A stretch of 54,459 bases of DNA, from NCBI GenBank assembly GCA_046484545.1, contig JAWOIR010000100.1:1-54459 (forward strand), in the 5' to 3' direction. How positions within the stretch are numbered: position 1 is the first letter of the stretch; each line of letters starts with the position of its first letter. The DNA is from Anaerolineales bacterium. Its GTDB lineage: Bacteria > Chloroflexota > Anaerolineae > Anaerolineales > Villigracilaceae. Positions 6,318 through 53,687 of this stretch are shown one piece after another. The notes below the pieces were generated by a model, which saw nothing but the letters and a program-made list of their open reading frames with translations, was not told where the DNA came from and made no database searches. The position numbers and the translations under genes are program-made.

Positions 6318-6647
6318 ATGAATAAAGTCTTGAACATCCCTCATCGTACAAGCCATGGCATGTGCCCGGTCAATGGCATCCGCGACCTGGTGCAGTGGCG
6401 CTCGGGTCGGGATTGGTCAAACGAGTTCTTATGGGGATTGGGCCAGGGCGGAGGCTTTGCTTACCTGCGCTTCAACGCCGCCGATCCGCCGCGCCAGGTG
6501 TATACGGGCATCTCCACCCCACGCCTGACCCCGCTACTGCCGTTTCTCGGAATAGCATTGATCGGACATTCCGCACCTTACGCTGTTCTCTCCGCGCTGT
6601 TCATTATTCTGCACACCTGGCATGGAATCCAAAACCTTACACTTTGA
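6318..6647 (+). pseudogene. Chimeric ORF: BtrH_N-like N-terminal fragment fused to the C-terminal tail of a 42585-43031-type membrane protein
   Basis: Residues 1-65 (HGMCPVNGIRDLVQW...EFLWGLGQGGGFAYL) look like the first part of BtrH_N/DUF4872 proteins. Residues about 67-107 (PRLTPLLPFLGIALIGHSAPYAVLSALFIILHTWHGIQNL) parallel the last 40 aa of the 42585-43031 protein. Confidence 0.5.
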
Positions 6648-6676
6648 TCGTCATTTTTTCGAAAGGAATAAGCAAA

Positions 6677-7498: not shown

Positions 7499-7500
7499 GT

Positions 7501-35503: not shown

Positions 35504-38188
35504 ATGCCCGCGCTGATTCTCGCCACCAAACTCTACCTTCCGCCGCCCCGACCGGGCCTGGTCTCACGCCCTCACTTGGTTGCGCACCTGAACGAAGGCC
35601 TGGCATTGGGCCACAAACTGTCACTCATCTCTGCTTCGGCGGGCTTTGGCAAAACGACCCTTCTCAGCGAATGGATTTCCCTATTCAACCATTTGCACCC
35701 CCGCGTTGCCTGGCTTTCTCTCGACGAAACCGACAGCGATCCTCTCCGCTTCCTGGGCTACCTGATCGCGGCTTTGCAAACCGTTCAGCCTGAATTGGGT
35801 CAACCTGTGCAGGCCGCCCTGCAAACACCCCAGCCGCCGTCTTCCGAAAGCCTGCTGACGGACCTGCTCAACGAAATCGCCATATACCCCGAACGCTTGG
35901 CGCTTGTCCTTGACGACTACCACACCCTCGATTCGCCGGAAATCGACGCCAACCTGGCTTTCGTGCTTGACCATCTGCCGCCGCAACTGCATCTCGTTAT
36001 CGCCAGCCGCGAGGACCCCAATTTGCCCCTGTCCCGCCTGCGCGCCCGCGATCTGCTCACCGAGCTACGCGCCCCCGATCTGCGTTTCACTCCTGCCGAG
36101 GCCGCCGACTTTCTCAACCGCGTGATGGGATTGGATCTCTCCGCGAAGGATGTGACCGCACTCGAAGCCCGCACCGAAGGCTGGATTGCCGGGTTGCAAC
36201 TGGCAGCGCTTTCCATGCAGAGACAAAAAGATACGGCCGCCTTCATCCAGTCCTTCACCGGCAGTCACCATTTCGTGTTGGATTACCTGCTGGAAGAAGT
36301 CCTCCAACGGCAACCGCAAAAAGTCCAGGCTTTCCTGCTGCACACTTCAATTTTGAGACGACTCACCGGCTCACTGTGTGAGGCAACATTAGACCTTTCG
36401 CCCGGCGCCGGGCAAGCCACCCTGGAACAGCTTGAGCGTGCCAACTTGTTTCTCGTTCCGCTCGACAACGAACGGCGCTGGTATCGCTACCACCACCTGT
36501 TTGGTGACCTGCTTCGTCAGCGGCTCGCAAACCCTCCAGAGTTCCCCACTTTCCATTTGCGCGCCAGCCAGTGGTACGAGGAAAACGGCGACCTGGCCGA
36601 GGCCTTCCAGCATGCCCATGCCGCCGGGGATTTTGAGCGCGCCGCGCGCCTGTCCGAACTTGCCTGGCCGGGCATGGAGGCGACCTTCCAATCGGTAGCC
36701 TGGCTCGGTTGGGTGAAAAAACTCCCCGATACGGCGATTCTCTCGCGTCCCTTGATATGCTGCCAACTTGGCCGCGCATTTTCAGACGCCGGTCAGCCAG
36801 AAATCAGTGAAGCCCATCTAAAAAACGCCGAACGCGCCCTGGCCGCAGCGCCCAACCAGGCCGTTTTTACGCCCTTGCCGGGGGATATTGCCCTGACCCG
36901 TGCCTATAACGCCCAGGTGCGCGGGGACATCGCGGGAACGATTTACCATGCCGAACAAGCCGTGCGGCTTATCCCGGTCGAGGATGTTTTGCGCCGCGCC
37001 CAGGCCGTCATCATGCTCGAATTCACCCATTGGGCCAGCGGCGACCTGGAAGCCTCCCTGCGCGCCATCCAAACCTGGATGGACGATATGCGAAAATTGG
37101 GCAACCCGGTCTTTGAAGTTGCCAGCGCCTTTGCCAAAGCCGATTTGCTGGTAGCGTTGGGACGGTTGCGCGAAGCCATAACGACTTATCAGCAGGCGCT
37201 GCAACGCACCGCTGAAAGCGGTCCCGAAGCCGAACAAATCACCGCGCATCACCATTTGGGCCTGGCCCTGATTGATCACGAACTGGGACAGGATGAATCT
37301 GCCGCCCGGTCCCTACAAACTGCCGCCGAACTCGGCCAGCACACCCCCCTGGTGGATTGGCCGCACCGCTGGAGATTGGCCCAGGCCTGCTTAAAAGAAT
37401 CCGCTGGAGAGTGGGATGACGCCCTGGAACTGCTCGATGACGCCCGGCGGGTTTACGTCAAAAACCCGGTCCCGATTACTCGCCCGGTCGAGGCCAGGCA
37501 GGCGCGGGTCTACATCAAACAGGGACGGCTGGACAAAGCCGAGGCCTGGGCGCGGGAGCGGGGCCTTTCTCTGGATGATGAAGCCGCCTACCTGGCCGAG
37601 TACGAACTGCTTACCCTGGCCCGCCTGCGGCTGGATCATCCGCGGGCCCTCGATTTGCTGGAACGTCTGCTGGCCCTGGCGGAATCGCAGAACCGGATGG
37701 GCAGCGTCCTTGAAATCCTGCTGACCCAGGCGCTTGCGTACCGGGCACAGGGCAACCACCCCCAGACTCTGACTGCCCTGGGACGCGCCCTAACCCTGGC
37801 CGCACCACAAGGCTACCTGAGGACTTTTATAGACGAAGGCGAACAAATGCGATTGTTGATTGTAGATTTTCGATTGAAGATTGCGAACAGCACTCACCCT
37901 TTGTTTGGATATGTCAACAAACTCCTGGAGACTTTCCTGCCGGCGGCAGAAGTCATTGCCCAATCTAATATCGTAAATCTAAAATCTGAAATTTTCGAGC
38001 CTTTGACCGAGCGTGAGATGGAAGTGTTGCGCCTCGTTGCCCAGGGGCTTTCCAACACCGAAATCAGCCAGTGGCTCTATCTGGCACTCAGCACCGTCAA
38101 GGGCCATAACCGGCGCATTTTTGACAAACTGCAAGCCCGAAACCGTACCGAAGCCGTCGCCCGCGCCCGCGAGTTGGGCTTGCTCTAA
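35504..38188 (+). CDS. MalT/LuxR-type STAND transcriptional regulator (ATPase + TPR-like + LuxR HTH)
   Basis: N-terminus MPALILATKLYLPPPRPGLVSRPHL, P-loop SASAGFGKTTLL, and C-terminal LTEREMEVLRLVAQGLSNTEISQWLYLALSTVKGHNRRIFDKL. TATAAT at 35492-35497 ends only 6 nt before the ATG, so the mRNA may be leaderless. Confidence 0.8.
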   Translation: MPALILATKLYLPPPRPGLVSRPHLVAHLNEGLALGHKLSLISASAGFGKTTLLSEWISLFNHLHPRVAWLSLDETDSDPLRFLGYLIAALQTVQPELGQPVQAALQTPQPPSSESLLTDLLNEIAIYPERLALVLDDYHTLDSPEIDANLAFVLDHLPPQLHLVIASREDPNLPLSRLRARDLLTELRAPDLRFTPAEAADFLNRVMGLDLSAKDVTALEARTEGWIAGLQLAALSMQRQKDTAAFIQSFTGSHHFVLDYLLEEVLQRQPQKVQAFLLHTSILRRLTGSLCEATLDLSPGAGQATLEQLERANLFLVPLDNERRWYRYHHLFGDLLRQRLANPPEFPTFHLRASQWYEENGDLAEAFQHAHAAGDFERAARLSELAWPGMEATFQSVAWLGWVKKLPDTAILSRPLICCQLGRAFSDAGQPEISEAHLKNAERALAAAPNQAVFTPLPGDIALTRAYNAQVRGDIAGTIYHAEQAVRLIPVEDVLRRAQAVIMLEFTHWASGDLEASLRAIQTWMDDMRKLGNPVFEVASAFAKADLLVALGRLREAITTYQQALQRTAESGPEAEQITAHHHLGLALIDHELGQDESAARSLQTAAELGQHTPLVDWPHRWRLAQACLKESAGEWDDALELLDDARRVYVKNPVPITRPVEARQARVYIKQGRLDKAEAWARERGLSLDDEAAYLAEYELLTLARLRLDHPRALDLLERLLALAESQNRMGSVLEILLTQALAYRAQGNHPQTLTALGRALTLAAPQGYLRTFIDEGEQMRLLIVDFRLKIANSTHPLFGYVNKLLETFLPAAEVIAQSNIVNLKSEIFEPLTEREMEVLRLVAQGLSNTEISQWLYLALSTVKGHNRRIFDKLQARNRTEAVARARELGLL

Positions 38189-38259
38189 TCCCCAAACAGT
38201 ACTCTTGATCAATACTTAAGTCGCTACTGGTAATACCGCTTTACCGGTATAGTTGGCGC

Positions 38260-38514
38260 ATGTCAAGCAACCAGAATCAGCGCATGACCCAACTACCCGC
38301 CAGCCCCCGCTACTACGAAATCCGCCTGGAAGGCCGCCTGCCCGAACGCTGGAGCAGTTGGTTCGATGGCCTGTCCATCTCCTGGCAGGCTGGCGAGACC
38401 CTGCTCCGCGGCCCCATGGCTGACCAGGCGGCGCTCTATGGCCTGCTCAAAAAAGTGCGCGATACGGGCTTGATTTTGGTCGCAGTCAATCAAATTTGTA
38501 CAAAACAGGAGTAA
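38260..38514 (+). CDS. Small hypothetical protein
   Basis: 84-aa ORF between the LuxR-type regulator and the first MDR gene. No motif recognised. Confidence 0.4.
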   Translation: MSSNQNQRMTQLPASPRYYEIRLEGRLPERWSSWFDGLSISWQAGETLLRGPMADQAALYGLLKKVRDTGLILVAVNQICTKQE

Positions 38515-38519
38515 CCCTC

Positions 38520-39473
38520 ATGAAATCAATCGTTCTCAATGCCTACGGTTCGCCCGCTGGCCTCAGCCTTAAAGAAATTGCCGAGCCAACGATCAAAGAA
38601 AACGAAGTGCTGGTGCGTGTTCACGCTGCCTCCCTCAATGCGGGCGACGTTTTTTCGCTGCGCGGCAGTCCGTGGCTTGTCCGCTTGAGCGTGGGTTTTC
38701 CCAGGCCCAAGGATTACATCCTTGGCTGGGACATGGCCGGGGTGGTCGAGGCGGTGGGCGCTCAGGTGACGCAGTTCAAACCTGGTGAAGATGTGTTTGC
38801 CTCGTGCAGCGGCTCACTGGCCGAATACGTCAGCGTGGACGAGGACAAACTGGCGCTCAAGCCCGCCAATCTCACCTTTGAGCAGGCCGCGGCAGTGCCG
38901 ACCGCCGCTATCACCGCCCTGATAGGCCTGCGGGACGCCGGTAAATTACGAGCAGGCCAAAAGGTGCTGATCAACGGTGCTTCGGGCGGCGTGGGCACGT
39001 TTGCCGTGCAGATTGCCAAAGCCCTCGGCGGCGAAGTGACCGGCGTGTGCAGTACGCGGAATGTGGAGCTGGTGCGCTCCTTGGGTGCCGATCACGTGAT
39101 TGACTACGTCCACGAAGATTTCACCGCCAACGGCCAGCGCTACGACCTGATCCTAGATAACGTCGCCAGCCGCTCATTTGCCGACCTGCGCCGCGCACTG
39201 ACCCCACAGGGCAAAATCATCCCGAATAGCGGGCATGGCGGCATGAGCTATGTCTTCAAAGCCTATTTGCTCTCGCTGATCATGCGCCAGCACGGCGGGA
39301 TGTACCTGGCCTTGCCGAGCGGAAAAGACCTGCTGGTTTTGAAGGAGTTGATCGAGACAGGAAAGCTCAAACCGGTGATTGACATAACCTTCCCGCTCAG
39401 CGAAACCCCCGCCGCCTTCCGCTACCTGGAAAAGGAACACGCCCGCGGCAAAGTGGTCATCACGATTGCATAA
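38520..39473 (+). CDS. MDR-superfamily NAD(P)-dependent oxidoreductase (quinone oxidoreductase-like), paralog 1
   Basis: ...VLVRVHAASLNAGD..., the cofactor motif VLINGASGGVGTFAVQIAK and ...ARGKVVITIA at the end. ATG 38520 follows CAGGAG. Confidence 0.75.
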   Translation: MKSIVLNAYGSPAGLSLKEIAEPTIKENEVLVRVHAASLNAGDVFSLRGSPWLVRLSVGFPRPKDYILGWDMAGVVEAVGAQVTQFKPGEDVFASCSGSLAEYVSVDEDKLALKPANLTFEQAAAVPTAAITALIGLRDAGKLRAGQKVLINGASGGVGTFAVQIAKALGGEVTGVCSTRNVELVRSLGADHVIDYVHEDFTANGQRYDLILDNVASRSFADLRRALTPQGKIIPNSGHGGMSYVFKAYLLSLIMRQHGGMYLALPSGKDLLVLKELIETGKLKPVIDITFPLSETPAAFRYLEKEHARGKVVITIA

Positions 39474-39676
39474 TGAGACAGCGATGGAAACGAAAAAATA
39501 TTCTTTCTGTGAGCTGGATCGTCGTGATGATGATTTATTTCCTGGTGGCTGGCTTTTTCATCCTGTTAAACCTGGTTGGCCTGCCCACTTACCCCTCGCT
39601 CTACGATAAATTCCTGCTGGTGGTCAGTATGGTGTTCAACGGGGTGACCATCGGGTATGCCGGGAACTGGATTTAG
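39473..39676 (+). CDS. Small two-TM membrane protein (hypothetical)
   Basis: 67-aa ORF whose start overlaps the MDR stop. It is followed by a strong terminator. Confidence 0.35.
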   Translation: MRQRWKRKNILSVSWIVVMMIYFLVAGFFILLNLVGLPTYPSLYDKFLLVVSMVFNGVTIGYAGNWI

Positions 39677-39702
39677 CCAGGCTGGTTTGTACGGTCATAA
39701 CC

Positions 39703-39736
39703 AACACGGCCATCCAAATGCGGCCGTGTTTTTTTG
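39703..39736 (+). terminator. Intrinsic terminator
   Basis: AACACGGCC (39703-39711) / GGCCGTGTT (39722-39730) followed by a T-run to 39736. Confidence 0.75.
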
Positions 39737-39781
39737 TATTTTTGGTTTAAAGATTGCTTCCCATAATAATGTACGCTGGAC

Positions 39782-39810
39782 TTGACTTAATGTAAAAAAT
39801 ATATTACTAT
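39782..39810 (+). promoter_or_regulatory. Sigma70-type promoter TTGACT-17-TACTAT
   Basis: TTGACT 39782-39787, 17-nt spacer, TACTAT 39805-39810, in a very AT-rich intergenic region. TACTATA is repeated at 39805 and 39826. Confidence 0.45.
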
Positions 39811-39863
39811 ATGTAAAGTATAAAATACTATAAGTAATTTATAACATACACCAGGAGAGTAAA

Positions 39864-40316
39864 ATGTCAAACCGTAAAAATGCCATCACCGTATCTTTGA
39901 TCAGCACCCTGCTGATTTTGGGGTATTACCTGATCAATATATTCCTGATGTACCAGAAGGGAGGTCTGAATTCAGAAGAAGTCTTTCGACTTTGGGCGAT
40001 TGTCGTCATTGCATCGATTGTTCTGAATATCGCTGGCAACATTCTCACCAATATTGTGCTCAATATTGTCCATGCCATCAAGACAAATTCGAAAGAAGAA
40101 GTGCGTTTACTCGAAGATGAGCGCGACAGGCTGATCGAGTTGAAGGGCGCCAGGGTTTCTTATATCGTGAGTTCGATTGGTGTTCTTCTTGCCATGCTTA
40201 GCTTTGTGCTTGGCCAACCTGCCCTGGTGATGTTCAGTTTGATCATTTTCTTTGCCCTGATTGCGGAAATCATTGGGGACCTCTCGCAGTTCTACTTTGA
40301 TCAAAAGGGGGCTTAA
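39864..40316 (+). CDS. 4-TM membrane protein (DUF2178-like partner of small XRE regulators)
   Basis: 150 aa, visibly AT-richer than neighbouring genes. It sits immediately upstream of a 74-aa XRE HTH gene, a commonly seen pair. Confidence 0.5.
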
Positions 40317-40318
40317 AT

Positions 40319-40543
40319 ATGGAAAAGCGCCAAGTCCGCAACAATATCCGTAAATTGCGCTTTTACCACGGCGAAATGACCCAGGAGCAACTGGCCGAAA
40401 AAGCCGGTGTCACGCGCCAGACCATCATCGCGATTGAAGGCGGCAAGTACGCCCCCTCGCTCGAACTGGCCTTCAAAATTGCCCTGGCTTTCGGCGTGCC
40501 AATCGGTGAAGTCTTTTCTTACGAAATTGAGGACGAACAATGA
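40319..40543 (+). CDS. XRE (Cro/CI) family HTH transcriptional regulator
   Basis: ...[57 protein letters not shown]... Confidence 0.8.
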
Positions 40544-41556
40544 AAGCAATTCTCTATACCCAATACGGCCCGCCCGAAGTGCTGCGCCTGATAGACCTCC
40601 CCAAACCGAACCCGCACCCGAACGAGGTGTTGGTCAAAGTCCACGCCACTACCGTTACGATTGGCGATACCATCATGCGCAGCTTGAACATCCCTGTTCC
40701 GGGTTGGCAGAAAATCATGGCGCGGCTGTACCTGGGCTGGAATAAGCCCAAACGCCCCATCCTGGGGATGGAATTGTCCGGGGAGGTCGAAGCGATTGGC
40801 CGAAACGTGACCCGTTTCCAGCCCGGCGATGCGGTCTTTGCATCCACCTTTGCCGTCAATTTCGGCGGCTATGCCGAATTCAAGTGCCTGCCCGAAAAAG
40901 GGGTGCTGGCGCTCAAACCGAACAATCTCACGTTCGGGGAGGCCGCCGCTGCTCCGGGCGCAGGGATGACGGCCCTGGCCTGCCTGAAAAAGGGCAAAAT
41001 CCAGCCGGGGCAGAAGGTGCTGGTTTATGGCGCATCCGGCGCGGTCGGGACGAACGCCGTCCAACTCACCAGCCGCCATTTCGGCGCGGATGTAACCGGG
41101 GTGTGCAGCACAGCCAATCTTGAACTGGTCCAATCGCTGGGGGCGGGTCAGATCATTGATTACACCCGCCAGGATTTCAGCCAAAACGGCCCAATCTACG
41201 ATGTCGTCTTTGACGCAGTGGGCAAACTCCCCCCAACTCTGGGCAAAAAAGCCCTCAAGCCGGGCGGCGTCTACATCAACGTCCATGTCGATTCAGATGG
41301 CGGTAACTCACTCGCCAACCTGATTTTGCTCAAAGAAATCATCGAGGCAGGCCATCTCAAACCGGCCATCGACCGGGTCTATCCCTTCGATCAGATTGTC
41401 GAGGCCCATCGCTATGTCGAACAGGGCCATAAAAAGGGGAATGTGGCCATCATAGTGGCTGACCACCCTGCCTCTTCTCGATCTCCCCATGTGGGAGTTG
41501 GTGAGAAAATCGGCGCTCGCGCCGAGAGCATAAAACCTAGAAAGGTTACACCATGA
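40540..41556 (+). CDS. MDR-superfamily NAD(P)-dependent oxidoreductase, paralog 2 (C-terminally extended)
   Basis: ...[14 protein letters not shown]..., [17 protein letters not shown], ...[11 protein letters not shown], then about 28 extra residues up to an ATGA overlap with the next gene. The ATG overlaps the XRE stop (ATGA). Confidence 0.75.
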
Positions 41557-42548
41557 AAGCTATCACCTTTATCAAATACGGTTCCCCCGATGTCCTGCAA
41601 CTGAAGGATATCCCTAAGCCTACCCCCAAAGAGAACGAAATCCTGGTGCGGGTGCGCGCCACGCCGGTCAACTACGGTGACCTGACGGCGCGGGATTTCG
41701 CCCACAGCCAGTTCAACATGCCCGCCCTGCTCTACCTGCCGGCGCGCCTGGCTTTCGGCTGGAGCAAGCCCAAAATCCAGGTTCTCGGCAGCGAACTGGC
41801 CGGAGACGTGGAGCTGGTTGGCAGCCGCGTGACCCAGTTCAAGCCCGGCGATGCGATTTTTGCTTACTTGGGCATGAATATGGGCGCAAATGCCGAATAT
41901 GTCTGCATCCCTGAAAGCGGCACTGTATCGCTGAAGCCTGCCAACTTAACCTACGAAGAAGCTGCCGTCCTGCCTTATGGCGCGGTAATGGCTGCCAGCC
42001 TGCTGCAAAAGGCCAATCTCAAACCGGGGCAAAAAATCCTTGTCAACGGTGCTTCCGGCGGCATCGGCGCGATGGCCGTCCAGCTTGCCAAACATCACTA
42101 TAGCGTAAATGTAACTGGTGTTTGCGGCACGGCGCGCCTGGAGTATGTCAAGGCTCTCGGTGCTGATAAAGTCATTGATTACACCCAACATGATTTCACC
42201 CAGAACGGCGAGACATACGATGTGATTTTCGACATCCTGGGGCGCAGTTCCTTTGTGCACTGCAAGAACTCGTTAAAACCGGATGGGATCCTGCTTTTTG
42301 CCAGCTTCAAAGGCCGCGCAATTCTAGATATGCTCTGGTCCGCGCCATTCAGCCGCAAAAAGGTCATCTGCGCCATGGCCGAAGAAAAAACTGCGAGCCT
42401 GCTGCTGGTTAAAGAACTGACCGAAGCCGGGAAAATCAAAGCGATCATCGATAAATGTTTCCCGCTTGAACAAACTGCTGAAGCGCACCGGTATATTGAA
42501 ACCGGGGGCCGGCAGGGCAATGTCGTTCTGGTCCTAGCAAAGGCATGA
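41553..42548 (+). CDS. MDR-superfamily NAD(P)-dependent oxidoreductase, paralog 3
   Basis: ...ILVRVRATPVNYGD..., ILVNGASGGIGAMAVQLAK, ...GRQGNVVLVLAKA. Confidence 0.75.
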   Translation: MKAITFIKYGSPDVLQLKDIPKPTPKENEILVRVRATPVNYGDLTARDFAHSQFNMPALLYLPARLAFGWSKPKIQVLGSELAGDVELVGSRVTQFKPGDAIFAYLGMNMGANAEYVCIPESGTVSLKPANLTYEEAAVLPYGAVMAASLLQKANLKPGQKILVNGASGGIGAMAVQLAKHHYSVNVTGVCGTARLEYVKALGADKVIDYTQHDFTQNGETYDVIFDILGRSSFVHCKNSLKPDGILLFASFKGRAILDMLWSAPFSRKKVICAMAEEKTASLLLVKELTEAGKIKAIIDKCFPLEQTAEAHRYIETGGRQGNVVLVLAKA

Positions 42549-43498: not shown

Positions 43499-43855
43499 GT
43501 GAACGCAACGAAATCATTACACACATTGTCATTGCTGAATCTTCACGATAACTGGGAATGGGCTGTTCGCGAAGAGAGCAAGAAGCTGGTGAGGACTATG
43601 ATCCAGGAAGTAGGGTGCGATGTGGGATCAAAACGCATAGTGTGGGTGAAGGTCAATCCGGACTACGAAATTCTTTTCAGGCTGATGGATGGACTGCAAT
43701 CCGACGCTGGACTACGCTACTGGATCCGAGAACATGGAGCAGAAGTGGACATTGTTGACATAAGGGAAGATATGGCGCAGATAGCGACAGAAGTCAAAAT
43801 CTTACACCCGATGGCCCACAATTTCTTGACAGAGACTGTGGAGCAAGTAAAATAG
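43499..43855 (+). CDS. Hypothetical 118-aa protein; 3' end carries the promoter of ncRNA copy 2
   Basis: ORF with a GTG start and no motif recognised. Its last roughly 45 nt are homologous to the non-coding sequence upstream of ncRNA copy 3. Confidence 0.4.
   Translation: MNATKSLHTLSLLNLHDNWEWAVREESKKLVRTMIQEVGCDVGSKRIVWVKVNPDYEILFRLMDGLQSDAGLRYWIREHGAEVDIVDIREDMAQIATEVKILHPMAHNFLTETVEQVK
43826..43853 (+). promoter_or_regulatory. Sigma70-type promoter TTGACA-16-TAAAAT of ncRNA copy 2
   Basis: TTGACA 43826-43831 and TAAAAT 43848-43853. The same hexamers with the same spacing recur at 50611-50638 before copy 3. Confidence 0.65.
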
Positions 43856-43859
43856 GAAT

Positions 43860-44135
43860 ACTGTACTTCAAAAGTGAGATTGCCCAGCGTGAACTGAGCG
43901 ATCTCGGGCGTGGAAACCACGCCGGTCGCAGATCCCTTGCACCTTGAAAGTCGTATCACCAGAACGATTAAGTCCGGTAGTAAGTGCAGTTATGTCCCAA
44001 AGGGACGCCGTCACGTGTGACGCCGCTGCCTATGGGGGATCTTATAACCTGCGGAGAGGGTGGGGTCCCTCTCCACGGTGGGTAAAAAAATCAACCAGCA
44101 CCTGGCGCGCTGAACCGGTGCTGGTTTCGTTTTCA
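43860..44135 (+). ncRNA. Structured ~270-nt RNA element, copy 2 (best-preserved; family unassigned, OMEGA/HEARO-like architecture is a hypothesis)
   Basis: Helices: 43876-43887/43894-43905; 43907-43913/43917-43923; long-range 43930-43936/44036-44042; 43949-43954/43964-43969; 43994-43998/44002-44006; 44053-44060/44067-44074. Terminator 44093-44102/44117-44126 plus T-tract. Compensatory changes occur relative to copies 1 and 3. A U.G pair in P1 is only viable on the + strand. Confidence 0.75.
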
Positions 44136-44140
44136 TTCAT

Positions 44141-44740
44141 CTGCTGATCGAGACGGAAGAAGTGAGCGACCCGCGCTATGCAGCCAACCCGGTCAACCGC
44201 TGTTATTTTTGCAAGGACGAGCTCTTCGATCATCTGGACGAGATCTCAAGCAAAGGGAATTATCGCTGGGTTTGCTACAGTGAAAATATCGATGACCAGT
44301 CCGACCACCGTCGCGGGGGGGTCGCCGCACGAGAGCACCGTGTGAGAGCTCCTTTGAAAGAAGCCGGGTTGACCAAAGACGATATCCGCACGCTGGCCCA
44401 ACACTACGGCTTACCTGTTTGGGATAAGCCGGCCATGGCCTGCCTGGCATCCCGTTTTCCATACGGCACGCAGATTTCGCTTGAGAAACTGGCACAGGTG
44501 GAGGCCGCCGAAGATTTCTTGTGGGGATTGAGCTTCCGCCAGTTCCGCGTGCGCCACCATGGGGACATGGCGCGCATCGAGGTAGAGCCGGAGCATATGC
44601 TCGAGCTGCTGAAGCGGGCCAGCGAAGTTTATGCCCGCTTTCGCCAGATCGGTTTCACCTTCGTTGCCATGGACCTGGCGGGCTACCGGCGGGGCAGCTT
44701 GAATGAAGGCCAGGCCTTGATCCAGATCGCTGTCCAGTAG
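44141..44740 (+). pseudogene. larE: 5'-truncated larE (ATP-dependent sacrificial sulfur transferase), missing the N-terminal PP-loop region
   Basis: ...SDPRYAANPVNRCYFCKDELF...PAMACLASRFPYG... are LarE hallmarks, including the sacrificial Cys motif. Similarity starts abruptly just after the ncRNA terminator, so about 85-90 N-terminal residues are absent. Confidence 0.7.
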
Positions 44741-44783
44741 TCCAGATTGGGGTAGGAGGCAGGCGCACATCCTGAAGCGCAGC

Positions 44784-45236
44784 ATGAAAATTCTGTATTT
44801 CGATTGTTTCGCCGGCATCGCCGGAGACATGATCTTAGGAGCATTGATTGACCTGGGCGTGGATCTCCGCCAGCTCGAAAAAGAGCTTGCCAAACTACCT
44901 CTGGTAGGTTACCGATTGGATGTCCAGAGTGTGAAGAAGCAGGCCATCCGAGCAATTAAATTAAAAGTGCTGCTGCAGGATGAGGCCGGCGAACGCCCGG
45001 CGGATGCCGAGTTCGAGGAAATCGATCCGGGGAGCGAAGCGCCAGACCCTGCTTCCCACAGCCATCACCCAACCGTGGATCAAGAACAGGGACACGAAAC
45101 TCCTGCAGTGGGTTACCCTGCCCGCAGCTTGGGCGAGATCCTGGATCTGATCGACTCCAGCGATTTGTCCTCCAGCACGCGCTCCCTCGCCAGGGCGATC
45201 TTCACTCGACTGGGGGAGGCGGAAGCCGTCGTGCAC
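44784..45236 (+). pseudogene. larC: 3'-truncated larC (nickel-pincer cofactor Ni insertion protein), first ~150 codons only
   Basis: MKILYFDCFAGIAGDMILGALIDLGVDL...ARAIFTRLGEAEAVVH is the LarC N-terminus. Similarity ends at about 45236, where an antisense cyclase fragment begins. Confidence 0.7.
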
Positions 45237-45536
45237 AACCCATGCGGACCTTCAGCGGTCTGATTCTGTCGGACCAGGGTTCAGCCGCGATGGCCTGCTG
45301 CCCATCCAAAGCTGCAGCGATCCCTTCGGAGGGCGATTCGAACACGGCATGGAATCCGTCTCCGGTGGTTTTTACGACCCGACCGTGATGCTGCTCGATC
45401 ACCGCACGCACCAGCGCATCATGCCGGGCGGAGGCCTGGCGCATCTCAACCGGGTCGTTCTCCCAGAGTGGGTGCTGTTTTCCAGATCGGTGAAGAGGAA
45501 GGTGAGAACACCTTTAGGGGTTATGGAGTGGGTCAT
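45236..45536 (-). pseudogene. Frameshifted N-terminal fragment of a class III cyclase (paralog of the 46779-49541 N-terminus)
   Basis: The minus-strand reading MTHSITPKGVLTFLFTDLENST then shifts frame through a 1-nt loss in a C-run near 45470. It continues as EMRQASARHDALVRAVIEQHHGRVVKTTGDGFHAVFESPSEGIAAALDGQQAIAAEPW...PLKVRMG and then breaks off. Its ATG overlaps the upstream stop (ATGA at 45533-45536). Confidence 0.7.
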
Positions 45537-46778: not shown

Positions 46779-49541
46779 TTATTTGCTCAAGGCGAGTGCT
46801 ACGGCCTCGTCCATACTCATCTCCGAGCCTTCCGCCATTACCCGATCTCGCTCAACCTCCCCCATCGCGCCTGCCAACTGCTTCATGGCCTGCTCCATTT
46901 CAAAGATTTCAAGCGGATCAGTGCTGGGGGTGTTCAATTCCTCACGTGTGGCTTTAGCTCTACCGAGCAAGCGGGCGGCATGCTTGTTATTCCCGCTGGC
47001 AATCGCCGTGATAGCGAAACACTCTAGCTGGTGGGCAACTGCAGGCAAGCTTCCTTCTTCCTGCCATCCCTTAATAGTCTCCCGGTAAAGCTGGCGCGCT
47101 TCCTGGAACTTTCCGGTCCGGCGATAGAGATGGGCCAGGTCGCTCTTCGAGTGAAGGACGTTCCTCTGGTCATTGATCGCTCGAAAGTCATCGATGGCTT
47201 TCAAAAAGTAATCCTTTGCAGTCTCTGGTTCGCCTTGAAGGGCGGCCATCCTGGCCTGGATTTGCAGCACATTTGCATTGATTCGCGGGTTGTTGAATTC
47301 CCCGGCGATTTCGATCACTCTTTGAAAGTGCGGGAAGGCTTTCGCAAATTCACCCTGGTAGGCATAAAGAAAAAACTTTACCAGATTGAGCCAGCCTTCC
47401 GAAATCTCGAATCTATGCTGCTCACTGATCTCCAGGGCGCGATCCACTTCCTGTTCCCAATCGGGTGATATCTCATACTGGTTCACGATGAGGACGTTGA
47501 TCCTCCAGGCGATGCCATGTGTCATGCGTTCGAGATCGCCATACTCACGAGCAAGTGCAATTCCTTCATCGATTGTAGCCACGGATTTGAGATTTTCACC
47601 AAACAAGGAGTGAATGATTCCCAGGCCAAGATAGGCTTTGATTAAATCTTCAATCAGGTCTTCACCTGGCTGGGATTCTGTTAAGTTGCGCGTTTTATCG
47701 ATAGACGTTTCCAGCCAATTGCGGGCTTCGCTGGGATGGATCCAATGCGCCCAATGGTACAGCAGTGCGCTGCTGATGCGCAGAGCCAATTCTGGACGGT
47801 CATCAAAAGTCCAGGTTAGCACAGCCCGCAGGTTATCCATTTCTAACAGGATACGTTTAACCCAGGACACCATAGTATCTCGGACTAAGTGGTATTCGGA
47901 TTCCTGGGCAAATTTCACGAAATAATCTGCGTGCCGGTCGCGCAGGATTTCGCCTTCATTGGCCTCAAACAACTTGTCTTGTGCGAACTGGCGGATGCTT
48001 TCTAACATTCCATAACGCGCCTCACCGCTGGGGGGATATGCCACGGTGATGAGCGATTTATTAATGAGCTGCTCCAACTGATCAAAGACATCGAACGTAT
48101 CCAGCGGGTTAAAACCGGTAACCGTTTGAGCGGCTTCAAGATCCCAGCCGCCGGAGAACACACTTAAGCGGCGGAGCAGAATTTGCTCTTTCTGATCGAG
48201 CAGTTGCCAACTCCAGTCAATCAGGGCTTGCAGGGTTTGCTGGCGCGGCAAGGCGGTGCGGCGGCCGCCGGTTAGCAGGCGAAAACGGTCATTGAGATGT
48301 TCATTAATCTGCTCGATGGTGAGCATGCGCAGCCGGGCTGCAGCCAGTTCGAGCGCCAGCGGGATCCCGTCCAACCGCCGCACGACCTCGGCGATGGTGG
48401 CGCCATTTCCTTCCGTGAGGGCAAAATCGGGGCGAACTGCCCGGGCGCGTTCGAGAAAGAGCTGCACCCCTTCTGATCCGGCGATTTCTTCAAGAGTCTG
48501 TTTCTCTTTCGGCAGGCTGAGCGGCGGAACTTGGATCGCGGTCTCACCCTCGATGAAGAGCGCCTCGCGTCCGGTGATCAGCATAGTGAGTTTCGGACAG
48601 TGTTCCAGCAATTGCTCGGTGAATTCCGCGCTGGCTTGCACAATATGCTCGACATTGTCGAGCAGCAGTAACAATTCCCTACGCCGCAGGTAACCCGCCA
48701 GAGTATCGAAGATTTTTCGGCCCGGCTGCTCCTGCAGATTCAGGCTGGCAGCGACACGTTCGGGAATCAAGGCGGGATCGGTGAGGGGTGCAAGTTCCAC
48801 CAGCCAGACGCCGTCAGGGTAGTCTTCAATGACTTCTTCGGCCACCTGCAGCATCAGGCGGGTTTTGCCCGTCCCGCCGGGACCGAGCAGGGTGAGCAGC
48901 GGCGTGTTCTTGAGCAGGCGTTTGACCTCCCCCAGTTCTTTTTCGCGCCCGATGAAGGTGGAAAGCTGGCGGTGCAGGTTATGTTTGAACGTCGCCAGCG
49001 ATTTCAATGCCGGAAATTCCGCGGCCAGATCGGGGTGACAGAGCTGGTGAATTTGAACGATCGCCGAAATCCCCTTCAGTCGGTGTTCGCCCAATTCGAG
49101 CAAGGAGCAGTTTTCTGGCAGCGACCGCTTGACGAGCGTGGCTGTTGTATCCGAGAGCAGAACTTGGCCGCCATGACCCAACCCCATGACTCGGGCTGCC
49201 AGGTTAACTTCAGCGCCGAAGTAATCGCCCTCACGTTCCTGGCTCTCCCCCGTGTGCAGCCCGATGCGTACCTTGAGCGGGCCGGTTGTTTCCGGCCAGG
49301 GTTCGGCGCCGATCACCAGCTGTCCGGCCAGCGCAGCCGCCACGCCGTCTGCGGGCGACTCAAACACCGCATGGAACCCATCCCCGGTGGTTTTCACCAC
49401 CCATCCACGGTGTTGTTCGATAATCGCGCGAAGTAGGGCATCATGCCGGGCAGACGCCTGGCGCATCTCGACCGGGTAATTCTCCCAGAGAGGAGTGCTA
49501 TTTTCGAGATCCGTGAACAGGAAGGTGAGAGGACCGGTCAT
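46779..49541 (-). CDS. Class III cyclase domain fused to NB-ARC/AAA STAND ATPase and TPR repeats (920 aa; no LuxR HTH)
   Basis: N-terminus LTFLFTDLENST...KTTGDGFHAVF...RIGLHTGE...GAEVNLAARV, P-loop LLGPGGTGKTRL, and a long helical TPR-like C-terminal half. Confidence 0.8.
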   Translation of the reverse strand: MTGPLTFLFTDLENSTPLWENYPVEMRQASARHDALLRAIIEQHRGWVVKTTGDGFHAVFESPADGVAAALAGQLVIGAEPWPETTGPLKVRIGLHTGESQEREGDYFGAEVNLAARVMGLGHGGQVLLSDTTATLVKRSLPENCSLLELGEHRLKGISAIVQIHQLCHPDLAAEFPALKSLATFKHNLHRQLSTFIGREKELGEVKRLLKNTPLLTLLGPGGTGKTRLMLQVAEEVIEDYPDGVWLVELAPLTDPALIPERVAASLNLQEQPGRKIFDTLAGYLRRRELLLLLDNVEHIVQASAEFTEQLLEHCPKLTMLITGREALFIEGETAIQVPPLSLPKEKQTLEEIAGSEGVQLFLERARAVRPDFALTEGNGATIAEVVRRLDGIPLALELAAARLRMLTIEQINEHLNDRFRLLTGGRRTALPRQQTLQALIDWSWQLLDQKEQILLRRLSVFSGGWDLEAAQTVTGFNPLDTFDVFDQLEQLINKSLITVAYPPSGEARYGMLESIRQFAQDKLFEANEGEILRDRHADYFVKFAQESEYHLVRDTMVSWVKRILLEMDNLRAVLTWTFDDRPELALRISSALLYHWAHWIHPSEARNWLETSIDKTRNLTESQPGEDLIEDLIKAYLGLGIIHSLFGENLKSVATIDEGIALAREYGDLERMTHGIAWRINVLIVNQYEISPDWEQEVDRALEISEQHRFEISEGWLNLVKFFLYAYQGEFAKAFPHFQRVIEIAGEFNNPRINANVLQIQARMAALQGEPETAKDYFLKAIDDFRAINDQRNVLHSKSDLAHLYRRTGKFQEARQLYRETIKGWQEEGSLPAVAHQLECFAITAIASGNNKHAARLLGRAKATREELNTPSTDPLEIFEMEQAMKQLAGAMGEVERDRVMAEGSEMSMDEAVALALSK

Positions 49542-50069: not shown

Positions 50070-50326
50070 TGCTCCTTTCTTGATTGCTAAGTGAAGAATC
50101 CGGATGAACCCGGAATCAGGCAGCGGTGCACGCATTGGTCCAAAGGGCTTCGATAGATCTGGGAGATAACCCAAAAACATTATACGGTAGTTATCGATAT
50201 ATCGGGTAGAAAAAGTTGAATTTTCCCGTTTGTCAATAACCGCTTCCGGTTTCGGAAGGGCAGCATTAGCCGGTCATAACTCAGGAGTTATGGGACCGCT
50301 GCCAGGCATTACGTGCCAGCCGGCGT

Positions 50327-50578
50327 GTGGTCCCCAAGACCGGTCAGAAGGCAGCCAGGGTGCACCTGCTGCAAGACGAGCGGGATGGTCCTGATCCGGA
50401 GACCGAGCGCAAGGAAATCCGCACCATGCTGCGTTTGATGCGAGATAACTATGAGCGCGGCATGTATGAAGGGGAAGAGTACCAGTACTGGCAGAAAGTC
50501 AACGGCTTGAAAGAGAAGATTGAGCTGCTCAACCGCATTCCCGAAGCGGCCATAGATTTGTCACCCGAACGAAACTAA
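50327..50578 (+). pseudogene. C-terminal fragment of a (large) serine recombinase
   Basis: ...ERKEIRTMLRLMRDNYERGMYEGEEYQYWQKVNGLKEKIELLNRIPEAAI... resembles the coiled-coil tail of recombinase-family proteins. No catalytic or zinc-ribbon domain lies upstream. Confidence 0.45.
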
Positions 50579-50610: not shown

Positions 50611-50638
50611 TTGACAAGAGCAGGGGAGTAAGTAAAAT
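50611..50638 (+). promoter_or_regulatory. Sigma70-type promoter TTGACA-16-TAAAAT of ncRNA copy 3
   Basis: TTGACA 50611-50616 and TAAAAT 50633-50638. The upstream CCCACAATTT block is also shared with copy 2. Confidence 0.6.
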
Positions 50639-50644
50639 GAAGTT

Positions 50645-50815
50645 ACCATACGTTAAGTGAGATCGCCCAGCGGGAACTGAGCGATCTCTGTCGCAAGTCC
50701 TCCGTCTTGTTGATCCACTATCGCCAAGCGATTGAGGCCGGCGATAATGTTCAGCTTTCACTGCTAACGAGGATCTTCCGACCTGCGGAGAGGGTGGGTG
50801 CCCTCTCCGCTGTGG
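50645..50815 (+). ncRNA. Shortened variant (copy 3) of the structured RNA element; lacks the terminator
   Basis: P1 50659-50670/50677-50688 is identical in design. The long-range helix 50696-50702/50769-50776 is retained with a compensatory U-A pair. The 8-bp hairpin 50787-50794/50801-50808 is retained. The central domain is replaced by about 65 nt of unrelated sequence, and the 3' end runs into a TPR gene fragment. Confidence 0.5.
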
Positions 50816-51466
50816 AAAATTTCACAAATGAGGCCTTAGCCCTCTTTCGAAAGCAGGAGAACCGGCGCGGCATTGCGCAGACAATAGATCTGCTGGGCAT
50901 CGTGAGCTACCAGCTCGGCGAGGTCGTTCAGGGTGCAGATTATCTTGAACAAGCCGTTCCCATCTTGCGCGAGCTGGATGACCGCCAGGGTTTTGTGAAC
51001 ACGCTACGAATTTGACGGTGTGGGCACTCACAGATATCGAGTTTGAGGCGAGATCAATTATCTGCAATTGACGAAACTGAGCGACGAGGCGCTCCAGATC
51101 GCACACAGTTTTCATTGGTATCAAGGGGAGGTACTCGCCCTGATGCAGGGAGCCATCAGTCTGGAGAAAGTGGGCGGCTACGGGCAAGCCTTGGAGCGGC
51201 TAGCCCAAGCCCAATCCCTGGCAGAAGAGAGCCCCAATCGCGAATCATTCGCCCGCCTCCATCTGATTTTTGGTCAAATCTTCAGTGGGCTGATCGCTTT
51301 AACCGAAGCGAAAAAGCATTTCGAAACCGGGCTGACTTACCTGCAAGAACTCGGCTCCGGGCTTCTCATCCTTGCTACAAAGGTGCACCTGGCTGAGATG
51401 GGCTTTATACCCGGCCGTTTGTGGTTCACAGGAAAAATACGTTATATACATTGCTGGCGAACATGA
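50816..51466 (+). pseudogene. TPR-repeat protein fragments (two frames, interrupted)
   Basis: ORFs 50707-51015 and 51068-51466 encode TPR-like helices (…EALALFRKQENRRGIAQTIDLLGIVSYQLGE…; …GYGQALERLAQAQSLAEES…) with no N-terminal domain and a stop/frame break near 51015-51068. Confidence 0.5.
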
Positions 51467-51488: not shown

Positions 51489-51752
51489 TCACTTGAGGAC
51501 CATCCGTCCGATGTTAGTGTTTACATAGTTCATTTGCCCACCTGCAAGATCGGAATGCCCGTTCATCGGTTCTATTTCAACATGGGTAACATGTTTGGAA
51601 ATCAATTTGCTCAGTGTTTTTGGGGCCAACAGTTGATCAACACTGCCGAAAAGAGTGTGTTTAGGTTCTAGGTTCATAGTCTTTTCCCTTCCAGCCTGGT
51701 TTTGAACGACTGTCAACAGAGCGGGCCATGTGAGCTTAATATTTCTATTCAC
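51489..51752 (-). pseudogene. Partial tandem duplicate of the methyltransferase-3'/kinase-5' junction
   Basis: ...NIKLTWPALLTVVQ...MNLEPKHTLFGSVDQLLAPKTLSKLISK... repeats the end of 52830-53687 and the start of 51761-52846. The DNA at 51645-51750 is nearly identical to 52825-52925. Confidence 0.65.
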
Positions 51753-51760: not shown

Positions 51761-52846
51761 TTATGAGGCGTTGATCCAGCGTACCCCATCACGAACCTGC
51801 TTGTTGCACGCTTTCACACGCATTTCGGCATAGTGTTTGAAGCCCGGATCTTCTGTACGATCTATAAAATAAGCCACATAACAAGTGATCCACAAGACCT
51901 CGACCAAGATTCCCAAGTCAATCATTGCCTGCCATTCTGTATCCTGAAACTGTTTGTCCAAATATCCTTCCAAACGTTGGCGGTAGTACGCCTGTGCCTG
52001 TGCCTGTTCCGCAGGATCCAAACTAAAATTAAGGACGATCCGGGCTAGGTCAATGGTCATCAAGGATCGCATCGCCAGTTGCCAGTCAACGATAACGGCC
52101 TGATTGGGGTCCTTGTAGGCAAGATTGTTTTTGTAGGCATCCCCTTGCAGCAATGTATGAGGGTAGCAATTCAATGCGTCCAACAACGGTTGCGGATTAT
52201 CGATAAGGCTCTGCATGTGTGACATCATATCTGGTTCCAACAGTTCTTTCAACGCCTCCCAGCCACCTATACACCCACCGGGAAGCCAGCCCCAATGATC
52301 GTTATTATGTTGGCGTGCAAAATTGGGAGATGACAATTGGAACAAAATGCGCGGACTATCCAACCCGAGACGGGAATCATACAGGTGTGGATCATCCCAG
52401 AATTCGGCATGAAGTTTGGCCAGGGCATCGAGAAAGGTGGGCAACAACTCCTGTATTCGTTCTTCTGATGAATCCAATAGAAAATGCCCTGAAAGATCCT
52501 GCATCAGGATCGCCCAAATATCGTTCTCGTGGGCACAGGCGAGTATCTTGTGTTCCAGATGCGGGCGCACCTGATCAAGTAAACCATACTGCCAAAGCGT
52601 TACTGACCGGCATAAGTGGTCATCCGTGGCGAACATTTCCCAATCTGACTTGATCGACATCGTTTTAAGAACCAGCCTTTCGGCATTCGTGTCCACAAAA
52701 GTGAACTCACTGCCGGCATTTCCCCAAACGGAGGGGGCGGAGTAGTTCACCTGGGCCATTGGTTTGGAGAGCAGTTGACTCAATGTTTCGGCAGCCAGCA
52801 TTTGATCAATGCTATCGAAGAGAGTGTGTTTAGGTTCTAGGTTCAT
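51761..52846 (-). CDS. APH/ChoK-family phosphotransferase (kinase-like fold)
   Basis: The Brenner-type catalytic motif LLQGDAYKNNL followed by VIVDWQLA (the HxDxxxxN ... D pattern with Q in place of H); 361 aa. Confidence 0.65.
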   Translation of the reverse strand: MNLEPKHTLFDSIDQMLAAETLSQLLSKPMAQVNYSAPSVWGNAGSEFTFVDTNAERLVLKTMSIKSDWEMFATDDHLCRSVTLWQYGLLDQVRPHLEHKILACAHENDIWAILMQDLSGHFLLDSSEERIQELLPTFLDALAKLHAEFWDDPHLYDSRLGLDSPRILFQLSSPNFARQHNNDHWGWLPGGCIGGWEALKELLEPDMMSHMQSLIDNPQPLLDALNCYPHTLLQGDAYKNNLAYKDPNQAVIVDWQLAMRSLMTIDLARIVLNFSLDPAEQAQAQAYYRQRLEGYLDKQFQDTEWQAMIDLGILVEVLWITCYVAYFIDRTEDPGFKHYAEMRVKACNKQVRDGVRWINAS

Positions 52847-53687
52847 AGTCTTTTCCTTTCCGGCCGGGTTTTTGAACGACTGTTAACAGAGCGGGCCATG
52901 TGAGCTTAATATTTCCATCCACGCGGCGGTCATCTATCTCTGAAAGGATGTATTCAAGAATTTGTTGCTGTATTGCAGGCGACTGATGTCCGATGACCAT
53001 TTTTGAGCGGACTGATATTTTTTCCAAAATATCCAATATTTGTCCTGCAGAGGTTGTTTGCCATAGGATGGGAAGTCGTTTAAAGTGTGGTGTATCAAAA
53101 CCTGATTGTCTTATAACACTCTCACAAATTTGTTCATCTGCGAAGCGCATTCGTTTCCATATTTCTGGAAGAGCAAAAACCTCTATTGCAAATCGTGTAA
53201 CCGCATCGTTCGTTATTCGAAAAAGTTCATTACCATTCTCTCCATCAAACCACAATGTGAAAGCAAAACGTCCGCCAGGCTTCAAAATGCGGAAAACTTC
53301 ATCCACTGCAACCTGGGCCTTCTCCACGTGAGACAGTCCGAATGCACAAGTCACGGCACCGAACGAGCAATGCTCATACGGGAGTTGTGTGGCGTCGGCA
53401 ACCTTGAAAAGATTACCGGGATACGTCTTTCTGGCCACCTCGATCATCGGCTCTGCAAAATCAATCCCTTCGCTGGCGGCCCCCCGTAGGGAGGCCGCCG
53501 CGACCAGATGTCCCGTTCCACACGCGACATCCAAGTGCTTTTTCCCCTCTATCTTCCCCAGACTATCGAGAATATCTCCAATCGCTTGTTTGGATATCGA
53601 ACCAAATACCGAATCGTAAATCTCAGCACGCTGTGACCAGGCTTCGTGTTCGATCTCGTGCAAGGATTTATCTGAGGTCATTGACAC
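52830..53687 (-). CDS. Class I SAM-dependent methyltransferase
   Basis: Motif I HLDVACGTGHL and post-I ...GIDFAEPMI... 17-nt overlap with the kinase start. Confidence 0.75.
   Translation of the reverse strand: MSMTSDKSLHEIEHEAWSQRAEIYDSVFGSISKQAIGDILDSLGKIEGKKHLDVACGTGHLVAAASLRGAASEGIDFAEPMIEVARKTYPGNLFKVADATQLPYEHCSFGAVTCAFGLSHVEKAQVAVDEVFRILKPGGRFAFTLWFDGENGNELFRITNDAVTRFAIEVFALPEIWKRMRFADEQICESVIRQSGFDTPHFKRLPILWQTTSAGQILDILEKISVRSKMVIGHQSPAIQQQILEYILSEIDDRRVDGNIKLTWPALLTVVQKPGRKGKDYEPRT

Follow-up and report, generated by a model that had tools for sequence, protein, structure and literature searches.

The module and its upstream recombinase gene

The window analyzed here, a 54,459-nucleotide (nt) stretch from an Anaerolineales bacterium (contig JAWOIR010000100.1), contains three copies of a repeated sequence, termed the module below, which a first-pass annotation had described as a three-copy family of structured RNA. 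The copies were confirmed at 393-653 (copy 1), 43871-44134 (copy 2), and 50655-50815 (copy 3), far above chance expectation. In a repeat search, copies 1 and 2 were 92% identical over 392-559/43870-44037, 91% over 554-610/44033-44089, and 96% over 605-655/44086-44136, and their flanks were again seen to diverge past ...CATCTG. The first hairpin of copy 3 (50655-50693) matched 394-432 of copy 1 at 92% identity, the corresponding part of copy 2 (43872-43910) matching at 95%, and the last part of copy 3 (50767-50823) matched 554-610 at 67%. A 21-nt core pattern, for which shuffled sequences give an expectation of 0, matched the window at these three copies only, and a hidden Markov model built from 95 homologues found the same three sites and no others (E values of 1e-33 to 6e-36). 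Copy 3 had been taken for a shortened version; it is in fact a complete module of subtype II, whereas copies 1 and 2 belong to subtype I.

Scanning 185,579 species genomes with the hairpin core returned 31 loci, approximately 23 of them true homologues, all labelled Chloroflexota (Anaerolineales and "Chloroflexia" metagenome-assembled genomes [MAGs]). A metagenome scan using a pattern of the two hairpin arms with a free loop gave at least 120 matches. Together with loci fetched via their proteins, these make up a collection of at least 165 module instances, to which the counts below refer. All of the copies come from Chloroflexota/Anaerolineae or from unlabelled metagenome contigs, and they sort into four subtypes. 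The pattern of the first hairpin, P1, had 0 matches in viral contigs, and there is therefore no sign of a phage origin.

Clustering of open reading frames (ORFs) revealed that in many loci a + strand ORF ends about 30 nt before the hairpin pattern. Its full-length version, in locus L024, encodes 553 amino acids (aa) with matches to the Pfam families Resolvase, Recombinase, and Zn_ribbon_recom, which identifies it as a large serine recombinase (LSR), and public data hold more than 100 intact relatives at roughly 50 to 100% identity. The module lies directly 3' of the LSR stop codon. LSR sequence was found upstream in 93 of 143 evaluable copies: among 165 copies, the gene is full length in 12, runs into a contig edge in 11, and survives as a C-terminal fragment in 70; a further 50 copies have no detectable LSR, and 22 have too little upstream sequence. 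The earlier statement that no ORF is conserved across the copies missed the upstream side of the repeat, where the ORFs at 43499-43855 and 50327-50578 overlap matches to one and the same recombinase.

Other recombinase and transposase genes were seen close to P1. In five loci (L005, L026, L087, L101, and L122), a tyrosine recombinase gene (Phage_integrase plus Phage_int_SAM_4) on the other strand replaces the LSR gene about 30 nt upstream of P1, always with the junction ...GCGCTTAGTCC|AATGA at the position of the LSR stop codon, as if this spot were the target of a second site-specific element. In L035, a gene for an IS110-family transposase (6483-7990) sits between the LSR tail and P1, part of which is duplicated at the junction.

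tRNA-Ser and the recombination junction

The final bases of every complete module are GGAGAGGGTGGG, which in reverse complement gives the 12 nt at the 3' end of tRNA-Ser. At 10 of the 23 genome loci, a tRNA-Ser gene predicted by ARAGORN (nine CGA, one GGA) abuts the module on the opposite strand, and 45 of the 116 copies with the 3' motif continue from the 12-mer into a complete tRNA-Ser gene on that other strand. The junction in these homologues thus holds an intact tRNA gene whose 3' end is supplied by the element. In about 60 other homologues, the 12-mer is followed by T-arm-like sequence in which the T-loop has been replaced (for example, TCCCCTACCCACGGTGGG). All three window copies have this form, a module plus a far half-site; the far half in copy 2, GTCCCTCTCCACGGTGGG, can be compared directly with the tRNA-adjacent form, GGAGAGGGTGGGATTCGAACCCACGGTGG, and a tRNA search of the window itself found none.

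Beyond the far half-site lie terminators that differ between lineages. The start of the copy 2 terminator stem, ACCAGCACC, recurs past the junction in L067 and L154, and other lineages carry unrelated terminators. A terminator had been assigned to the putative RNA gene, and a terminator is indeed present, but it is part of the far side beyond the junction and is bidirectional. An 8-bp hairpin proposed just before it (GGAGAGGG/CCCTCTCC) has the same composite nature: the pairing exists, CCCTCTCC in the far half being complementary to 44053-44060, but it spans the recombination junction and joins the module end with the far half-site.

The junction is sharp and polymorphic between related genomes. 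Homology between L034 and L036 (99.7% identity over 5,455 bp) breaks off precisely behind GGAGAGGGTGGG, from where L036 continues into tRNA-Ser and chromosomal genes and L034 into the far half-site and unrelated genes (NACHT and others). In L032 and L040, the region beyond the junction encodes HTH_17, a Rep-like protein with a DnaA_N match (faint in L032), FtsK/SpoIIIE, ParA, and SSB, a complement typical of integrative, replicative, or transferable elements. The fragment protein P0062 was found in several samples with the same left flank. Junctions combining a near flank other than the module with a far half-site were seen in L051, L061, L063, L119, and L123, none of them with a partner on the same contig in the right order.

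Two of these junctions, in L051 and L123, contain a short hairpin (ATCGCCCAG...C[C/T]GGGCGAT or GCCCAG...CTGGGC) followed by a T run, located 7 to 9 nt past the tRNA-Ser 3' end and sharing sequence with P1. We read this hairpin as the putative native terminator of tRNA-Ser, and the module looks like that trailer and terminator with a structured insertion of 100 to 150 nt. P1 has the corresponding features on the strand of the tRNA (the minus strand of the window). In copy 1, P1 (398-427) was called as a minus-strand terminator with 13 pairs, a loop of 4, and the tail ACTTTTATTT, and the family consensus tail after P1 on the tRNA strand is ACTTTT(T)AA; copy 2 was not called (4 T, one A.C), and copy 3 has no T run after P1 on the minus strand. 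In every tRNA-adjacent locus, P1 is the first terminator that the tRNA transcript meets, and the module would therefore be transcribed there as a tRNA 3' trailer, judging from gene order.

With moderate confidence, we interpret the repeat as the LSR-proximal end of Chloroflexota/Anaerolineae integrative elements that insert at the 3' end of tRNA-Ser genes, an end that would supply the tRNA 3' terminus, a structured trailer, and a terminator. Its sequence features indicate that the module probably acts on the strand opposite to the LSR gene, as the replacement tail and terminator of the tRNA. The self-contained RNA gene of about 270 nt originally proposed would then be a composite of the LSR 3' flank, a copy of the tRNA-Ser 3' end, the far side of the junction, and the bidirectional terminator of that far side.

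The proposed layout, in the direction of the LSR gene, consists of the LSR stop codon, P1, an optional hairpin P1b, a domain of 100 to 150 nt closed by the helix P2, the 12-nt copy of the tRNA-Ser 3' end, and the junction. Upon integration, the module would rebuild the last bases of the tRNA and, as the gene order implies, become the 3' trailer of the tRNA transcript. Termination at P1, some 20 nt short of the LSR stop codon, would shield the recombinase gene from tRNA-driven transcription. The structured domain that separates P1 from the tRNA might contribute to trailer processing or stability or might dampen LSR expression once the element is integrated, which is only a guess. A whole element would run from the far half-site through transfer and replication genes and cargo to the LSR gene and the module. 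Later elements are envisaged to integrate between an older module and the tRNA, a presumed tandem step that would leave co-oriented relics of module plus far half-site.

All three window copies are most likely fossils of such successive integrations followed by deletion, silent on the tRNA strand; we read them as relics because they are accompanied by LSR pseudogene fragments (in copy 1, only about 5 codons of the tail) and because the window has no tRNA. On the minus strand, the modules of copies 1 and 2 are closely preceded by a terminator of that strand, and these two copies should therefore be silent there. As decayed relics, the window copies have low biological importance of their own; it is the family that deserves follow-up. 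Upstream of the LSR fragment of copy 2, the window encodes a MalT-TPR/GerE regulator and three paralogous Zn-dependent dehydrogenases (35504-42548), and the intact LSR gene of L040 has the same kind of upstream cargo (a MalT/GerE regulator and a Zn-dependent dehydrogenase). This likeness suggests that the 35- to 44-kb region is the right-hand part of a decayed element.

Two irregular arrangements were seen at the junction. In L063 (986-1400 and 11692-12100) and L151, the far side of the core consists of an inverted module and recombinase tail, giving two units head to head, which would fit inversion between oppositely oriented attachment sites. In L008 and L012, from the same MAG, homology to the module ends at CTGCGGA| and is followed by the shared but unrelated sequence ACGCTTTGTCAA...GGAACGAA.GTTTCGGCCCGTTTG; this break, a few bases from the main junction, may reflect another insertion or a different recombination partner.

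Fold, strand, and promoter-like signals

The initial claim of a structured, nonrandom fold was borne out (z scores of about -3 to -5). Of the helices proposed, folding reproduces the hairpin at 43876-43905 (P1), GGCGTGG/CCACGCC (P1b), and the long-range helix 43930-43936/44036-44042, which forms part of P2. The inner hairpin (43949-43954/43964-43969) is not conserved, with all six pairs present on the + strand in just 7 of 28 subtype I relatives, and the compensatory change reported for it thus sits in a hairpin that the family does not keep. The compensatory change in the long-range helix agrees with the family data, the closing helix P2 being kept with different sequences in subtypes I/II, III, and IV. 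Cognate P2 duplexes have energies of -13 to -18 kcal/mol and most cross-subtype combinations -6 to -14 kcal/mol, an exception being II x I at -19.3 kcal/mol.

An alignment of 95 distinct sequences was built without structural information. Consensus folding of a mixed alignment found only P1, and the subtypes were therefore folded separately and the structure was projected from subtype I by hand. The projected structure has 83.0% of its cells paired, compared to 34 to 41% when the partners are slid. Cells changed on both sides number 141, against 60.5 in shuffled alignments, and the covariation score is 0.103, against 0.080, values reached by 0 of 500 shuffles in either case. Within P1, 98.6% of cells are paired; P1b has 95% of cells paired and two covarying pairs (CG<->UA, 19:15; GC<->AU, 19:11).

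Both strands fold better than shuffled sequences, but the tRNA strand does so more strongly. It is the more stable strand in 95 of 99 sequences, with a mean minimum free energy (MFE) of -62.8 versus -54.0 kcal/mol (a gap of 8.7) and a mean z score, over 30 sequences, of -5.5 versus -3.2 for the LSR strand; consensus energies for each subtype are lower by 7 to 13 kcal/mol. For copy 2 alone, the values are -74.5 kcal/mol (z of -4.2) on the tRNA strand and -69.0 kcal/mol (z of -3.2) on the LSR strand. With the same helices, 83.0% of cells are canonical on the tRNA strand versus 72.6% on the LSR strand, a comparison weakened by the fact that the projected structure itself derives from the tRNA-strand fold. 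Fixed positions point the same way: P1 contains an invariant U.G pair (95/95) on the minus strand that is a C.A mismatch on the + strand, and P4, inside the central domain, has three majority G.U pairs alternating with A-U/G-C on the tRNA strand. The assignment of the RNA to the + strand is therefore probably wrong, given that folding energy, the fixed G.U pairs, and the terminator geometry of P1 all favor the minus strand. The U.G pair of P1 in copy 2, which had been offered as evidence for the + strand, is a private change that weakens the hairpin on the strand preferred by the family.

The + strand does carry a promoter-like signal. A near-consensus site precedes copy 2, as had been noted, and lies within the last ~12 codons of the LSR fragment. 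The -35 and -10 boxes fall inside a coding tail because the conserved upstream motif GTCCCACAAT..CTTGACA..GAGGAGTA..TAnAATGA encodes the C-terminal residues of the LSR (...MSHNTLTxxEEYxx*). Among 66 homologues, ATGTCCCACAAT, TTGACA, GAGGAGTA, and AATGA are conserved at synonymous sites, and the codons between them vary at all three positions, so some nucleotide-level constraint must act here. The constrained blocks could represent a promoter, or a ribosome-binding site and the start of an ORF of 25 to 36 aa.

The first of these options leads to a free-standing small RNA (sRNA) of about 200 to 270 nt on the + strand, with its own sigma-70 promoter in the LSR tail, a terminator past the junction, and a function of its own that may outlast decay of the recombinase, an explanation that we consider unlikely. 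In its favor is the site before copy 2, where TTGACA-16-TAAAAT matches the consensus at 11 of 12 positions, together with conservation of the -35 box, the -10 box, and two further blocks at synonymous sites. The promoter-like site is kept in 87 of 135 distinct upstream regions and absent from 48, including that of the tRNA-adjacent L026 and that of window copy 1, for which no + strand promoter match was found. Unrelated + strand terminators do occur past the junction in several lineages, but they are equally explicable as the ends of recombinase mRNAs, and in 45 copies the transcript would enter the tRNA in antisense without meeting a terminator. Modules greatly outnumber intact recombinases, an excess that is in part an artifact of searching with the P1 sequence. 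The fold argues further against a + strand sRNA, which would have the invariant C.A mismatch in P1 and three mismatches among the ten pairs of P4, and whose consensus structures vary between subtypes. In the window, only copy 2 has both a promoter and a terminator; copy 1 has no + strand promoter match, and copy 3 has no terminator after the far half.

The second option is a gene for a peptide of 25 to 36 aa, translationally coupled to the LSR gene, in which the ATG overlaps the LSR stop codon (ATGA), GAGGAG lies 8 nt upstream, and P1 is also coding (..KSEIAQRELSDL..). Of 100 distinct copies, 74 have an ATG at a distance of exactly 24 nt upstream of P1; GAGGAG shows conservation at synonymous sites, and a gene caller annotated a 31-aa ORF in L040 to L045. 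The ORFs fall into length classes of 25/26, 31, and 36 codons, which means that P1b insertions stay in frame, but equal lengths are also expected from plain homology. Substitutions in the P1 region of 148 copies are distributed 68:72:78 over codon positions 1:2:3, with no third-position excess, and the ORF is therefore not treated as a gene. Two loop codons vary radically (R/L/G/H and E/S/T), the C-terminal residues are subtype specific, and the ORF is absent from window copies 2 (ATA) and 3 (frameshift and early stop), all of which makes the peptide highly improbable.

A third explanation dispenses with RNA function on either strand and regards the inverted repeats as parts of an extended attachment site to which the recombinase or accessory proteins bind. 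In its favor, the unit is located precisely at the recombination junction, and one strand of P2 is no more than about 25 bp away from the core, in the range expected of a recombinase half-site; CTTATAA(G) recurs inverted on the far side in L024 and L063; and the arms of P1 are near-invariant around a 6-nt spacer that varies freely, as in an operator. We nevertheless regard it as very unlikely. At the DNA level, the helices that contain fixed G.U pairs form imperfect palindromes, the hairpins of variable length at fixed points (P1b, its nested extension, and the P5 branches) are characteristic of structured RNA, and dyad symmetry linking the body of the module to the far flank is not a general feature (z of <3 in 54 of 58 cases). 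To our knowledge, large serine recombinases do not need accessory sites, which also counts against it.

A final alternative keeps the tRNA strand but gives it another role. The module may be an integration-state RNA, its functional strand transcribed only once fused to the tRNA-Ser promoter, with the P2/P4/P5 domain acting in trans or in cis, for example by repressing or timing LSR expression and excision or as an RNA partner of the serine recombinase. This is quite unlikely; if true, it would be the first case of a structured RNA linked with this class of recombinases and with serine integration targeted to a tRNA.

Several points weigh against reading the module as an element end that provides the tail of a tRNA. 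A complete element with both junctions was not recovered among the collected loci. L043, L044, and L045, contigs assembled independently from one strain and carrying the same intact LSR gene, each begin 272 nt upstream of that gene, corresponding to position 9730 of L040; this shared contig start is an ambiguous break that could place the core inside the element rather than at its edge, and position 9730 may be the boundary of a variable or multicopy unit, a misfit with a simple end-of-element picture. The far side of the core in L040 is also unlike that of the other loci. Sporadic changes in the helices are strand neutral (57 G.U versus 57 A.C), which leaves the strand signal to a limited set of fixed positions and to a structure that was itself derived from the tRNA-strand fold; noncanonical pairs make up 3.7% in tRNA-adjacent modules versus 4.8% in the others, a difference that is not significant (p = 0.12). 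Finally, the conserved near-consensus promoter suggests that a + strand transcript also exists, possibly as the LSR 3' untranslated region or a short RNA.

Known systems and other features of the window

The first-pass annotation could not place the repeat in a known RNA family, and database searches agreed. Rfam gave 0 matches at gathering thresholds over the whole window on both strands and chance-level matches only at an E value of ≤10, with no match near gathering score for HEARO (RF02033), the IS605-orfB motifs, group II introns, or retron-associated motifs. Searches with two other subtypes at gathering and permissive thresholds returned only tRNA and noise. The omega RNAs, bridge RNAs, retrons, and diversity-generating retroelements were rejected as candidates, as an adjacent IscB, TnpB, DEDD, or reverse transcriptase gene is absent and the differences between copies are not adenine specific. 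A riboswitch or leader of the downstream gene was likewise rejected, because copy 2 is followed by a larE-like C-terminal part lacking its N terminus and the flanks differ between copies. In the full-text literature, nothing relevant was found on RNA associated with large serine recombinases or with such elements in Anaerolineae, nor was any report found in which a structured module separates a large serine recombinase gene from its attachment site.

Genomic islands in tRNA genes resemble these elements in that an element-borne copy of the tRNA 3' end restores the gene and leaves an intact tRNA at the junction, and the co-oriented relic arrays seen here would be explained if one tRNA was used repeatedly. 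In contrast, the adjacent integrase here is a large serine rather than a tyrosine recombinase, and the restored part is only about 12 nt, followed by 110 to 190 nt of conserved structure before the terminator. The Islander paper (PMC4383910) described serine recombinases and tRNA gene targeting as an unknown combination, and later tycheposon work mentions a minority of elements with large serine recombinases.

Large serine integrases of the phiC31, Bxb1, and SPbeta type also have the recombinase gene beside the attachment site, dyad symmetry in the core (GGAGAGG(G) ... CC(C)TCTC(C)), and a sharp homology break between occupied and unoccupied sites. The system described here differs in its target, the T-arm/acceptor region of a tRNA that is mimicked by the far half-site, and in the conserved folded module between gene and core; we know of no such module in the model systems. 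In lambda, a structured RNA element (sib) likewise lies by the attachment site, so that integrated and free elements give integrase transcripts with different 3' ends, but sib is located across attP from int and acts via RNase III on the int strand, whereas the best structure here is predicted on the opposite, tRNA strand. The 3' external transcribed spacer (3'ETS) of leuZ in Escherichia coli provides a precedent for an RNA between a tRNA 3' end and an intrinsic terminator; 3'ETS RNAs are released by tRNA processing. The trailer here would be supplied by the element, three to four times longer, highly structured, and without a known target. The bridge RNAs (seekRNAs) of IS110/IS1111 and the omega RNAs of IscB/TnpB (HEARO) share with the module the placement of a structured noncoding segment beside a recombinase or nuclease gene at an element end, touching the target junction. 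Here there is no Rfam match, no adjacent DEDD, IscB, or TnpB gene (apart from the incidental IS110 insertion in L035), and no variable guide-like loop was seen. Serine recombinases recognize DNA via protein domains.

If the reading as an element end is right, the modules would mark a large, previously undescribed family of integrative elements whose serine recombinase targets a tRNA gene, and the far half-site mimicking the tRNA T-arm would offer a ready attP/attB pair for biochemistry. Represented by at least 165 copies in four subtypes and absent from Rfam, the module is a candidate new RNA motif, and its position predicts transcription as a tRNA trailer only in the integrated state. With regard to annotation, "orphan structured RNAs" that occur repeatedly in Chloroflexota genomes may represent fossil element ends, and promoter-like boxes can sit in the tails of decayed genes. 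The features of the window are listed in Table 1.

Table 1. Positions of the module copies, their component parts, and recombinase remnants in the window
Feature	Position	Strand	Description
LSR C-terminal pseudogene fragment	43529-43855 (match 43529-43852)	+	aa 446-553 of 553; tblastn with L024 protein, 48% identity, E 2.5e-25
Promoter-like TTGACA-16-TAAAAT	43826-43853	+	11/12 consensus matches; inside last codons of the LSR fragment
P1 hairpin, copy 2	43876-43905	-	13-bp stem, then T run; in copy 2 weakened by one A.C and a short T run
P1b hairpin GGCGTGG/CCACGCC, copy 2	43906-43923	-	Optional; in ~40% of homologues
Central domain, copy 2	43924-44052	-	MFE fold; P2 43924-43936/44036-44049 encloses branched hairpins (~43997-44032) and P4 43957-43965/43972-43979
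Core 12-mer, copy 2	44053-44064		Element-side half of the putative recombination core; same 12-mer runs into tRNA-Ser in 45 homologues
Far half of core, copy 2	44065-44082		tRNA T-arm-like, T-loop replaced
Bidirectional terminator hairpin, copy 2	44093-44134		Terminator-like calls on both strands; just past junction
Copy 1 recombinase tail	360-377		Only ~5 codons left
Copy 1 (subtype I)	393-653		P1 398-427; core 12-mer 574-585 (GGAGAGGGTAGG); far half 586-603; bidirectional terminator to ~653
LSR pseudogene fragments	50249-50557	+	aa 265-306 and 378-441; tblastn 55% and 64%, E 9e-10 and 5e-20; upstream of copy 3
Copy 3 (subtype II)	50611-50815		Promoter-like TTGACA 50611-50616/TAAAAT 50633-50638; P1 50659-50688; core 12-mer 50787-50798; far half to 50815

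Upstream of copy 1, a 10-bp inverted repeat at 295-341 (CACCAATTAG...CTAATTGGTG) overlaps a promoter-like site on the minus strand (TTGACA-17-TATTAT, 11/12) that points away from the module. Gene fragments abut the terminator of copy 2 (44135-45263). The first has no Pfam family and is presumably the larE-like C-terminal part mentioned above, recognized by the motifs NRCYFCK and ACLASRFPYG, and the second matches the nickel-insertion protein LarC (PF01969) over just the first 108 positions of the profile. Farther downstream, 45202-45512 and 49261-49541 share repeats of 233 and 41 nt at 76 to 85% identity, and 45202-45444 on the minus strand repeats the N terminus of a 920-aa cyclase/AAA/TPR ORF (46779-49541, minus strand), giving another truncated paralogue. 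A 361-aa ORF at 51761-52846 had no Pfam match. Repeats of 124 and 53 nt (79 to 94% identity) between 51580-51752 and 52749-52922 lie at the starts of two neighboring minus-strand ORFs, which implies that these are tandem paralogues.

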